Shown: in pieces, positions 213-40,194 of the stretch
How positions within the stretch are numbered: position 1 is the stretch's first letter
How the letters are laid out: each line of letters starts with the position of its first letter
IMG/VR virus record: IMGVR_UViG_2718217867_000003
Coordinates: 1 to 48,357 of that record
Reading direction: 5' to 3' (one strand)
From: a virus
Taxonomy: Duplodnaviria > Heunggongvirae > Uroviricota > Caudoviricetes
Length of the DNA: 48,357 nucleotides
The notes under the pieces: model-generated
Seen by the model: the letters and a program-made list of their open reading frames with translations, nothing else
Database searches by the model: none
Told to the model about the DNA's origin: nothing
Program-made: the position numbers and the translations under genes

Positions 213-797
213 TTACTCCCTGACAGGGTTCGTAGGCCACTCAATATCAGGTGCAGTTGATGTATCAACACGGTTCAGCAACACCCGATACTTTTTCCAG
301 GCTTCCAGCAATGAGGTTTCTTCCTCCGTTGCAATTTCCAGATCTGCAGCATCCTGAAGCGGCGCAATATGCTCACTGGCTGCCTGCATCAGGCTGTTTT
401 TTGTTTCTTCCGCCTCCCGGATCCGGAACAGTTTTTCTGCTTCCGTATCCTTCACCCAGGCTGTGCCGTTCCACTTCTGAAACTCCCCTTCCGGGGATAA
501 CCAGGTGACATTTTCCGGTAATGAGCCGAGTTCAGAAATAAATAACGCGTCGCCGGAAGCCACGTCATAAACCGTTTTACCCCGATGATCTTCAACGAGA
601 TGCCACGATGCCTCATCACTGTTGAAAACAGCCACGAAGCCAGCCGGAATATCTGGCGGTGCAATATAGGTACTGTTTGCTGGCAGACCTGTATGAGGCG
701 GAATATATGCGTCACCTTCACCAATAAATTCATTAGTTCCGGCCAGCAGATTATAAATTTTTATGGTCCGTGGTTGTTCACTCATTCTGAATGCCAT
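213..797 (-). CDS. tfa: tail fiber assembly protein (lambda Tfa-like)
   Basis: 194-aa ORF; sequence recalled as near-identical to phage lambda Tfa ([24 protein letters not shown]...); start overlaps stf stop. Confidence 0.85.
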
Positions 798-37822: not shown

Positions 37823-38569
37823 TTACTTCGCAATTCCTGGCTGGACGACATTCGGACGCCAGCTCTCCCAGTTGAAATTCACCCATCGCCCGCCGTTCAT
37901 GGTCATGCGATCCATAATCCGCTCGCCAAGCAATGTTTTCATGGCCTCATAGTTCAGGTTTGTCAGCATCCCCACGCTGCGCATCGACGCTGTCCGGCGA
38001 TCAACAATCTGGTGCAGTACCACCTGCTCGTTTTTCGTCTCGCGCTGAATGCCAATTTCATCAAGAACCAGCAGATCCACTTCGCACAGTTCCCGCAAAA
38101 ATTTTTCGCCTGACTGCCCGTCGTCATAGCTGGCGTGCAGGGCACTCATAACATCAGCCACGGTAACCACAATCACTGTCTGACCGTCTTTCAGCAGGCG
38201 ATTCCCGATAGCTGCCGCTAAGTGGTTCTTCCCGGTACCAGGTTTTCCGCTGAACGCAAAATTTGTACACCCGGTCATCAGTTCATCAGCGATGGATTTC
38301 GCCTGACTCAACGCGTATCGCTGCCCTTCGTTCTGCACCTGGTAATTCGAAAACGAGCATTTGCGGTGCAATGGCTGGATGCCAGAGCGATTCAGAATTT
38401 TTTCCACCCGCAACTGACGATTCTGACGGTTGATCTCCTCACAACGTTTCTGGCCTTCGGAAAGTTGCCACTCGCGCCACTCCGCTACCGTCTTGAATGG
38501 CGCGGTTACATGTGACGGGGCCAGTCTGCGGATACGTTCAAGAACGTCGCCTGTCGCAATATTTTTCAT
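37823..38569 (-). CDS. ydaV: DnaC-like helicase loader (AAA+, IstB-like)
   Basis: Walker [16 protein letters not shown] and Walker B LLVLDEIG. Confidence 0.8.
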
Positions 38570-38575
38570 GGTCAG

Positions 38576-39364
38576 TTACCCCCTGAAGCCTGGCGGGATC
38601 GCACTATCCGGTAACGAGACGGTGTTAACCTGTCGGAGTAACGTCTCAGGTCGAACACCTTTCGGCGCGAACAAGCCCTGGTATTCGTTGGCGATGCTGT
38701 GTCGAATCACCTGCTCAGGTGAAAAACCCTGCTGGCGGAATTTTTCCAGCTCCCGTATCGCCCCGTTAGCGCCCTGCTCCGTTCGAATCGGTTTTCGCAA
38801 TGCCTGCCTGAACTGAACCCACTCATGCCAGAGTGTTTCCGGCAACCAGTCAGGCAGCTCGATAGCCTCCGGTTCGAATTTTTTAGACGCTCGTTTTTGG
38901 CGAGGGGGATTTAGGGGGAGATAAGTATTTATATCTTCCTCTTTCTCTTCCTCTGGTAACGCTTTTTGATCCGTTTTTGTAACGCTGGCAGCGTTACCTT
39001 TTCGTTTCAGTTCTCGTATTTTTGTTACTCTCTCGTTTGTAACCGCCCGTTTTTTAGAGCTTTTCCCGTTATGGCGCTCAAAGTTAGGAAGCGACAACAC
39101 ACCATTAGTTTCGACCAGCCATCCAACCTGAATTAACGCATCAGCAAAACCAGCCATAAAAGTGATGCGATCTATTGCACTTTTTGTAACGCCGCGAGCG
39201 TTACACTCTGCGTTACCGTCTATCATTTGTTGATCCGCCCATGCCCAGAAGCGAATGACTTTCCCTAATGCGGCATCTGGATCAATATTCAGAATCTCAG
39301 CAAGCCTGAATATTTCCGGCTTATCCGGCGTAATAACTTCGAGCTTTATCCAGTTTGAAGCCAT
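38576..39364 (-). CDS. ydaU: replication initiation protein (lambda O-like role; YdaU-like)
   Basis: 262-aa ORF upstream of DnaC-like gene; basic linker; contains origin-like palindromes in coding sequence. Confidence 0.6.
   Translation of the reverse strand: MASNWIKLEVITPDKPEIFRLAEILNIDPDAALGKVIRFWAWADQQMIDGNAECNARGVTKSAIDRITFMAGFADALIQVGWLVETNGVLSLPNFERHNGKSSKKRAVTNERVTKIRELKRKGNAASVTKTDQKALPEEEKEEDINTYLPLNPPRQKRASKKFEPEAIELPDWLPETLWHEWVQFRQALRKPIRTEQGANGAIRELEKFRQQGFSPEQVIRHSIANEYQGLFAPKGVRPETLLRQVNTVSLPDSAIPPGFRG
38979..38997. repeat. 19-bp dyad GTAACGC-N5-GCGTTAC (copy 1, inside initiator gene)
   Basis: GTAACGCTGGCAGCGTTAC; additional GTAACGC/GTAACC half-sites nearby (38956, 39037). 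Confidence 0.6.
39186..39204. repeat. 19-bp dyad GTAACGC-N5-GCGTTAC (copy 2, inside initiator gene)
   Basis: GTAACGCCGCGAGCGTTAC plus adjacent GCGTTAC half-site at 39210. Confidence 0.6.
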
Positions 39365-39377
39365 TTGTTTTCACCTT

Positions 39378-39396
39378 GTAACGCTCGCAGCGTTAC
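39378..39396. repeat. 19-bp dyad GTAACGC-N5-GCGTTAC (copy 3, 14 bp upstream of initiator start codon)
   Basis: GTAACGCTCGCAGCGTTAC. Confidence 0.6.
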
Positions 39397-39441
39397 ATTT
39401 AACTGATACCGAACAAAACAGTTCGGTACGATTAATTTCAA

Positions 39442-39864
39442 TCAATGCACTACGACAGAATCGCTAGGAGAACCGCCGCCGCTGAAATGTGCTTTACGGT
39501 AAACGGCCTGGACTGCATCATCATGCGCATCAATTGCCGTACTCAGTGCATCCTGTGCCGCCAGTAATGCACGGCGTTCCAGGGTATCGAAGATGCAGAG
39601 TCGGTGACGCAGCTCGCGAGGAAGAATTGCCAGAACCGCAGGGATCAGTTTCTGAATTTTTTCCCTTTGCGCATTCGTTTCACCTTTCAACCAACGATGA
39701 TAGATATTCTGCTGATTGTTCCAGTCCTTGCCTGGTACCAGGGGCAATTCGCCGCCCCCCTGGCGCAGATATTCTTCAGTAATTGCGTTAGCGACCCACG
39801 CCTGCCCTTTTTCGGCTGCCAGGGCTAACAACACTGATTCGATGTGCTCATGCTTGATTTTCAT
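39442..39864 (-). CDS. ydaT: YdaT-like protein
   Basis: 140-aa ORF downstream of cro-like gene; recalled Rac YdaT. Confidence 0.65.
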   Translation of the reverse strand: MKIKHEHIESVLLALAAEKGQAWVANAITEEYLRQGGGELPLVPGKDWNNQQNIYHRWLKGETNAQREKIQKLIPAVLAILPRELRHRLCIFDTLERRALLAAQDALSTAIDAHDDAVQAVYRKAHFSGGGSPSDSVVVH

Positions 39865-40115
39865 GAATCAACTCCCATCAGCTTTTTCGTAGTAGTTTTA
39901 TTTCTGCCAATAGTTAAAATTGCATCGGCAGAAAATAATCCGTTTGATGCATGAGCGATTTTTTCAGCGTAATTTGTTTCGCCGGTATATTCTGTGCGAG
40001 GCAATTTTCCGTTATCCATCCATTTGTAGATTGCTCTTTGGCTGACACCACAAACGTCGGCCACAACAGAAACGCGAACAGTTTTGATTACATCTTCAAG
40101 TGTTTTCTGGTTCAT
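39861..40115 (-). CDS. ydaS: Cro-like HTH regulator YdaS
   Basis: ATG with GAGGGTG SD; HTH (VSQRAIYKWMDNGKLP); divergent from racR. Confidence 0.7.
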   Translation of the reverse strand: MNQKTLEDVIKTVRVSVVADVCGVSQRAIYKWMDNGKLPRTEYTGETNYAEKIAHASNGLFSADAILTIGRNKTTTKKLMGVDS

Positions 40116-40194
40116 ATCACCCTCACAATGTGAACTTTGAGTACATGCTATAACAGAACTGACAGTACATTCAAGAGCGAATATCATTGAACTT
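40116..40194. promoter_or_regulatory. divergent promoter/operator region between ydaS and racR
   Basis: 79-bp intergenic region with repeated AGTACAT and TGAACTT motifs. Confidence 0.4.

Follow-up and report, generated by a model that had tools for sequence, protein, structure and literature searches.

In lambdoid phages the replication origin consists of iterons and an AT-rich tract in the middle of gene O. Two iterons together with the AT tract are enough for unwinding, and synonymous mutations in the iterons abolish the function of the origin (PMC7466680). In the lambda origin, used for comparison, an A-rich purine tract (ACAAAAGAAAAAAGAAAAGA) comes after the four annotated iterons. For the Rac prophage of Escherichia coli K-12 the origin oriJ is experimentally known and poorly mapped. 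Here a stretch of 48,357 nucleotides from a virus of the Caudoviricetes (IMG/VR record IMGVR_UViG_2718217867_000003, positions 1 to 48,357), in the following called the window, was investigated. It contains three copies of the dyad GTAACGC-N5-GCGTTAC, two inside a gene for a putative replication initiator and one directly upstream of it. These dyads are probably the recognition sites of the initiator's own N-terminal domain, and would belong to a lambda-like origin embedded in the initiator gene. Hundreds of related phages share this layout, and no origin was ever described for them.

Results

Three perfect 19-bp dyads were found, at 38979-38997 (D1), 39186-39204 (D2) and 39378-39396 (D3), exactly the number given by the first-pass annotation of this DNA. 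In the whole 48 kb of the window no further match with up to two mismatches was detected. The dyads are non-random: by chance 0.08 matches are expected, and when the sequence was shuffled 100 times with its dinucleotides preserved, three copies were never reached. Of the heptamer GCGTTAC the window contains 17 copies, compared with 4.1 expected, and nine of the 17 lie within 38956-39396. D1 and D2 are 207 bp apart, D2 and D3 192 bp, and D1 and D3 399 bp. The dyad spacings considered for helical phasing range from 189 to 312 bp; the values are mixed, and they are bound to codon multiples.

Both coding-sequence dyads had previously been placed in the basic linker of the protein. Their position inside the gene was correct, and the linker holds for D1, which encodes amino acids 123-129 (GNAASVT) of the disordered basic linker and is proposed as the binding site of the origin core. 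For D2 the assignment was wrong, because this dyad encodes amino acids 54-60 (CNARGVT), a low-confidence loop of the folded N-terminal domain in the AlphaFold model. D3 (GTAACGCTCGCAGCGTTAC) lies 13 nt 5' of the initiator ATG and abuts the Shine-Dalgarno sequence AAGGTG. Its nearest base is -14, in agreement with the distance of 14 bp from the start codon stated before.

The extra half-sites noted nearby are present as well, at 38956-38962 and at 39210-39216. The latter (GGTAACGC in gene orientation) stands 12 bp ahead of D2, in register. In the subclass with the first dyad starting at nt 160, 22 of the 26 distinct sequences contain it without any deviation from GGTAACGC. The GTTAC/GTAAC half-sites at 39024-39043 (coding A-V-T-N-E-R-V-T) were not counted as parts of the system; their DNA is not conserved, as A-L-T stands there in most homologues.

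In the protein alignment of homologues with 52-80% identity the motif [C/G/S]-N-A-x-[S/G]-V-T appears at both in-gene positions. NGT-AAC-GCN-NNN-NGC-GTT-ACN encodes exactly this motif. Of 27 loci compared, taken from contigs of one genome per species, about 20 have a perfect or nearly perfect dyad at both of these codon positions, with a free N5 spacer. D2 keeps a constant codon position (amino acids 50-54) in homologues down to 36% identity, and D1 is kept in all relatives of the GTAAC class. Codon choice within the motif is nearly fixed. Asparagine is encoded by AAC in 39 of 40 cases (184 of 340 elsewhere in the genes) and valine by GTT in 38 of 43 (122 of 351 elsewhere). Serine is AGC or AGT in 38 of 42 cases and threonine ACA in 31 of 39, compared with mixed usage elsewhere in the genes, for serine of all six codons.

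Variability was determined as the mean per position of 66 distinct close variants from viral contigs (in the viral-contig scans, here and below, counts were taken among the approximately 600 matches listed). The 42 arm positions reached 0.012, the dyad spacers 0.166, other third-codon positions 0.167 and the non-coding leader 0.152; the arms are about 14-fold less variable than spacers or synonymous sites. The minimum of synonymous variability of the gene lies at nt 360-420. Two phages, TL-2011b (an Stx phage) and ST11-OXA245phi3.2 (from Klebsiella), have a perfect linker dyad that stands in another reading frame and encodes V-T-x-x-A-L. Thus, the DNA is conserved, not the peptide, and the sequence comparison indicates that the dyads are selected at the DNA level.

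The recurrence of N-A-x-S/G-V-T at both positions of the alignment could also be expected if the dyads were a by-product of a repeated functional peptide motif. To this explanation we assign practically no probability. D3 is non-coding, synonymous sites within the motif show a fixed codon choice, and its residues vary exactly as far as the NGT and NGC codons permit. Both motifs also lie in low-confidence or disordered segments of the AlphaFold model. The peptide-repeat reading was rejected on the non-coding D3, the fixed synonymous codons and the frame change in TL-2011b and phi3.2; frame change and non-coding D3 together exclude an explanation at the peptide level. According to the model, the dyads encode loop or disordered segments, in which the peptide is free to follow the DNA.

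All relatives of the N-terminal domain carry two 19-bp dyads in one layout, and the dyad sequence tracks the divergence of this domain. Most relatives belong to the class GTAACGC-N5-GCGTTA[C/G]. CTAACG-N7-CGTTAG was found in two loci assigned to Planctomycetota, with the symmetric change in both arms of both sites. TGTCACA-N7-TGTGACA occurs in a Vibrio phage and a Paraglaciecola metagenome-assembled genome (MAG), and GTCCGC-N7-GCGGAC in epsilon15, phiPSA1 and 79 distinct epsilon15-like viral contigs. Among the matches listed, the last dyad was the sole recurrent one in these 79 contigs, with two sites and 143 occurrences. In each of the four classes the dyad is 19 bp long. Where a phage has just the C-terminal module of the initiator in common, these dyads are absent, and the corresponding position of the linker is occupied by clustered repeats specific to that phage, namely ATCCCnnAAAACnnGGGAT in Gifsy-2, TGTCTC..GAGACA in mEpX1 and three copies of TGTTCAAACA in ydaU of K-12 Rac.

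It is very likely that the dyads are sites bound by the initiator; each 19-bp dyad is probably bound by a dimer of the N-terminal domain. Binding by another host or phage factor, or a function of the dyads as junctions for recombinational module exchange, appears highly improbable. Short conserved DNA in mosaic genes could promote exchange, and the module boundary falls in the same linker. Nevertheless, the N-terminal domain is the only coding region consistently co-inherited with the dyads, which change with its class; upstream genes and loaders differ between loci. The operators of the immunity region (40100-40190) do not contain the dyad motif, and a shared host factor is unlikely because the hosts span several orders or phyla.

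On the coding strand D1 is followed by further elements, in the same order in all classes. The first is an A-tract spacer (AAAAACGGATCAAAAA, 38963-38978, minus strand) between D1 and a lone half-site; ATCAAAAAGCGTTACC recurs at this spacer in enterobacterial relatives. Within the spacer a Dam site, GATC, was observed at 38968-38971 amid two A5 tracts. Several enterobacterial relatives also have GATC here (GGATCAAAAAGCG, AGATCAAAAAGCG), and others TATC, AATC or TTTC.

The lone half-site GCGTTAC(C) (coding strand, 38956-38962) abuts the purine tract. Between linker dyad and purine tract, a lone half-site with CGTTAC core (mostly GCGTTACC) was found in 71 of 84 genes of the GTAAC class, and GCGGAC, usually as GCGGACC, at the same spot in 61 of 78 genes of the epsilon15 class. 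The half-site of the other class was found there in none of 162 genes. As a half-site is unable to form a hairpin, it argues for sequence recognition by a protein and not for structure.

This result bears on the possibility that hairpins or cruciforms formed by the palindromes, in mRNA or in single-stranded DNA, serve as signals for RNA stability, translation or priming, with recognition of the structure and not of the duplex sequence. Each dyad folds to a stem of 7-9 bp, the leader RNA is predicted to be more stable than shuffles (z = -3.4), and the symmetric G-to-C change in the CTAACG class preserves pairing. All the same, we consider a hairpin function very unlikely: the lone half-site, unable to pair, co-varies with the dyad class, the stems are essentially invariant within a class without varied compensatory pairs, and the overall length stays at 19 bp in the four classes. 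Moreover, no Rfam match at gathering score was obtained for 38500-39500, and the dyads are not followed by a consistent U-tract. Intrinsic terminators were rejected as a separate candidate, as the consensus scan flagged only D1, on the antisense strand and with a weak T-tail, which is inconsistent across the dyads.

The half-site is followed by an all-purine tract of 21 nt (AGAGGAAGAGAAAGAGGAAGA on the coding strand, 38934-38954, minus strand), a candidate DNA-unwinding element. Of 165 distinct genes, 157 have a run of 12 or more purines (median 23 nt) within nt 300-600; elsewhere in the gene a run of at least 16 nt was found in one of 165. Arginine in the tract is encoded by AGA and AGG in a ratio of 246:1, compared with 292:387 elsewhere. 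As the preference for AGA holds even in the GC-rich Pseudomonas, Xanthomonas and Ralstonia phages, the conserved peptide R-E-E-K-R-R-E is the translation of (GAGAA)n. Next to the tract lies an AT-rich patch of 14 bp (TATAAATACTTATC on the coding strand, 38920-38933); in 38850-39100 the GC content decreases to 0.42-0.45, with strong AT skew. We regard it as likely that the origin comprises D1, the lone half-site, the purine tract and the AT patch, i.e. 38920-38997 in the linker-coding DNA.

The last element is C5-N5-C5, CCCCC-TAAAT-CCCCC (CCCCCTAAATCCCCC on the coding strand, 38904-38918, minus strand), at the junction with the C-terminal module. It also follows the A-rich tract in Gifsy-2, in mEpX1 and in ydaU of K-12 Rac, which have different N-terminal modules. 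Therefore, it is part of a common right-hand module. The element encodes P-P-x-P-P with the rare codon CCC, and four types of initiator whose N-termini are unrelated contain it. A role as right arm of the origin or as junction for recombination is possible.

The upstream dyad has an equivalent at -32 to -44 in every relative with a non-coding leader, in surrounding leader sequences that are unrelated, and the leaders of several relatives contain extra half-sites. By this comparison, D3 appears conserved but facultative. Because it lies against the ribosome-binding site, roles as auxiliary origin site or as autoregulatory roadblock are both reasonable; autoregulation by D3 is suggested only tentatively.

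A reading of all dyads as operators, by which the initiator represses or roadblocks its own operon and the true origin lies elsewhere, has to be weighed here. It would account for D3 in the leader next to the ribosome-binding site, and a distribution of the sites across 400 bp is more typical of looping operators than of iterons in tandem. Co-variation with the N-terminal domain suits any self-binding role. On the other hand, the conserved core pair lies in the gene, without a promoter-like site nearby on the gene strand, and D3, the sole site placed for regulation, is the dispensable one. The lone half-site, purine tract and AT patch beside D1, parallel to the lambda origin, are left unexplained, and the class-specific repeats of K-12 Rac, Gifsy-2 and mEpX1 sit at the same linker position. 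Thus, purely regulatory dyads are unlikely, and an origin in the initiator gene remains the preferred reading.

Two further observations were made in the leader region. An 8-bp hairpin, TACCGAAC-N6-GTTCGGTA (39407-39428, minus strand), separates D3 from the stop codon of the CII/YdaT-like gene; it is not followed by a U-tract on the gene strand, and in two close relatives it is kept with compensatory-looking stem changes. In Vibrio phage 1.211.A and epsilon15 a gene for a C-5 cytosine methylase overlaps the start of the initiator gene and replaces leader and upstream dyad.

The initiator gene (38576-39364, minus strand) encodes 262 amino acids, with a winged-helix-like N-terminal domain, a disordered linker, a three-helix C-terminal domain and a DnaT-like tail. 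The protein matches PHROG phrog_2509 'replication initiation protein' end to end (E 4.7e-88). The label replication initiator is based on this match and on the position just upstream of a gene for a DnaC-like helicase loader (37823-38569, minus strand), which follows directly downstream of the initiator gene (NF009043, 507 bits; IstB_IS21/DnaC-like). Upstream of the initiator gene a YdaT/CII-like gene, a Cro-like gene and a divergent CI-like repressor gene were identified. In the Pfam search neither the initiator nor any of 14 diverse N-terminal domains gave a match, and for the initiator this includes PF04492 (Phage_rep_O N-terminal domain) and DUF1376. In the AlphaFold model residues 98-159 form the disordered linker, and the predicted local distance difference test score (pLDDT) of the D2 loop is below 50. 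The best structural matches of the modelled N-terminal domain are winged-helix DNA-binding domains; the match is weak and without sequence similarity.

With tblastn against phage genomes the initiator proved to be modular, as residues 1-145 and approximately 120-262 recur separately. The N-terminal part was found in TL-2011b, the Xanthomonas CP2 group, Pseudomonas phages PAN70 and VW-6S, a Vibrio phage and Ralstonia phages, and more distantly in epsilon15/SPN1S and phiPSA1. These relatives carry various C-termini, neighbours and loaders. The C-terminal part recurs in lambda-gpO-like proteins with a different N-terminus; with 35-38% identity, amino acids ~89-262 align with the protein annotated 'Lambda gpO homolog' in Gifsy-2, with SPN3UB and with mEpX1 O. 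Other phages have such proteins as well.

An insertion of about 114 amino acids (..DLTHPKPFPSGREF..GRIDIVV..IELD..) was observed in many initiator copies of E. coli and Salmonella, among them proteins of 376-380 amino acids. It stands directly after the purine/AT tract, in one locus from gene nt ~437, and displaces the C5-N5-C5 element. One cluster representative was found on 219 contigs. A Pfam search with the 376-amino-acid variant gave no match. The insertion could be a nuclease-like or mobile domain inside the putative origin.

Matches to the same DNA were obtained in 1417 of 5426 complete E. coli genomes (about a quarter), 678 of them with at least 80% query coverage. It is also present in induced E. 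coli phages, where the gene is annotated 'replication protein O', and, with 94% identity and the annotation ydaU, in a record that bears the name 'phage Rac'. RalA, the small antitoxin RNA of RalR and a marker of the Rac prophage (46623-46801, minus strand), and IS009 (256-454, minus strand) gave the only Rfam matches at gathering score in the window. Thus, the window is placed in a Rac-like prophage.

Homologues of 31-93% identity with dyads at these two positions of the gene were found in phages of Enterobacterales, Pseudomonas, Xanthomonas and Ralstonia and in MAGs of other phyla, the taxonomy of the latter being used at face value. The same dyads were seen on six MAG contigs binned as Planctomycetota, Saccharibacteria or Ignavibacteria. 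Either the replication module has a very broad host range or these are mis-binned phage contigs.

Discussion

The following course of initiation is proposed. The initiator, expressed from a pR-like operon, would bind D1 and the lone half-site beside the purine tract. It would also bind D2 and D3, at distances of 207 and 399 bp, and these sites may be joined by looping. The complex would destabilize the purine/AT tract, and the C-terminal domain, which is DnaT-like or gpO-like, would bring the DnaC-like loader and the host DnaB onto the opened DNA. At the ribosome-binding site, D3 could additionally allow the initiator to damp read-through into its own gene.

The first-pass annotation had already suggested an origin of the lambda kind within the gene. 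Selection at the DNA level, co-variation with the N-terminal domain and the conserved core strongly support it; the arrangement differs from that of lambda, as the dyads are not tandem iterons. Several points weigh against the proposal. Only one dyad and one half-site adjoin the tract, from which the remaining dyads are separated by about 200 and 400 bp. The AT patch comprises only 14 bp, and the GC content of the 80 bp after D1 (0.42) is modestly under the gene average of 0.49. In many relatives, D3 is missing where the upstream gene overlaps or abuts the ATG. Perfect palindromes can also form hairpins in RNA or single-stranded DNA, and the labels of the MAG loci may be unreliable. Furthermore, no description of the motif, the family of N-terminal domains or the origin layout was found in the literature.

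Beyond the single locus, the data would fit an undescribed, widespread initiator family with the origin written in the coding sequence of its own N-terminal domain and linker, a reading for and against which we see equal chances. It would span Enterobacterales, Pseudomonas, Xanthomonas, Ralstonia, Vibrio and epsilon15-like phages as well as the MAGs assigned to Planctomycetota and Saccharibacteria, with at least four co-evolving protein/dyad classes. Its fixed layout would combine a dispersed pair of 19-bp dyads with one lone half-site and a purine tract of (GAGAA)n, and it may act by a looped complex and not by a tandem 'O-some' like that of lambda. The DNA constraint would dictate the peptide, both N-A-x-S-V-T and R-E-E-K-R-R-E, the latter by the rare codon AGA even in GC-rich hosts.

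If true, these results provide the origin and the recognition code for a module of about a quarter of the complete E. coli genomes, which also occurs in many phages of plant and animal pathogens. A simple sequence rule would then be available to locate prophage origins and to predict classes of replication specificity (incompatibility). The locus is a clear case of a DNA element dictating both protein sequence and codon choice. The four natural pairs of protein and DNA specificity would allow the co-evolution of initiator and origin to be studied, and the opening of an origin with dispersed sites could be investigated in contrast to the tandem iterons of lambda.

Compared with lambda, several features are alike. 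The repeats are located in the linker-coding middle of the initiator gene, as is also the case for K-12 ydaU, Gifsy-2 and mEpX1. The dyads comprise 19 bp (7-N5-7), compared with about 18-19 bp in lambda. In both systems the binding sites, putative ones in the window, are followed by an A-rich, purine-skewed tract, here the 21-nt purine run with the 14-bp AT patch (38920-38954). Both initiators are built of modules: the N-terminal part binds DNA, and the C-terminal part pairs with the helicase loader. In contrast to lambda, the N-terminal domain is not Phage_rep_O, and at least four closely spaced tandem iterons with a period of about 20-24 bp are not present; D2 lies in the coding sequence of the DNA-binding domain, and the optional D3 in the leader. 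The purine tract of the window is a mixed G/A sequence, (GAGAA/GAGGAA)n, whereas that of lambda is mostly A, and the partner is DnaC-like and not lambda P.

The genomic surroundings are those of the K-12 Rac region ydaU-ydaV/oriJ, with a racR/dicA-like repressor, ydaS/ydaT-like genes, initiator, DnaC-like ydaV and DUF1627. The last ~86 codons of the initiator gene are 97% identical in DNA to K-12 ydaU, and the same C-run element is present. However, the DNA match is limited to these last 258 nt, the N-terminal protein differs, and the K-12 gene has the annotation of the YdaU family. Its linker contains three copies of TGTTCAAACA and not the GTAACGC dyads; therefore, the window has a different origin specificity from K-12 Rac. 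In K-12 ydaU, nt 393-458 and 514-540, the three copies of TGTTCAAACA, one of them inverted, are followed by an A-rich stretch and C7-TAAAT-C7-G5. These copies are candidate oriJ iterons.

A further likeness was found to E. coli DnaT. The C-terminal ~19 amino acids of the initiator (38576-38632), ending in ..VNTVSLPDSAIPPGFRG, closely resemble the tail of DnaT, RDVNTVSEPDSQIPPGFRG, and initiator and DnaC-like gene stand in the same order as dnaT and dnaC. The annotation 'primosomal protein I' is found for several of the phage relatives. The likeness is limited to the C-terminal part, however: the DnaT equivalog model NF002770 gave 17 bits, compared with a cut-off of 201, for the tail only, and the profile matches to the PDB entries 2ru8_A and 9zbt_D had E = 0.08-0.27. 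To our knowledge, DnaT has no sequence-specific origin-binding domain. These observations hint at a shared ancestry of dnaT-dnaC and the phage module, and at a function of the tail as docking peptide.

To the winged-helix Rep proteins of iteron plasmids the initiator shows a weak structural match and no sequence similarity. In the plasmids the iterons lie outside the rep gene and are repeated directly; here the dyads are palindromic and lie inside the gene. In general, the system of the window appears, from its sequence, to be an origin within the initiator gene like that of lambda, yet without tandem iterons and without the Phage_rep_O N-terminal domain, and it is not of the K-12 YdaU type.

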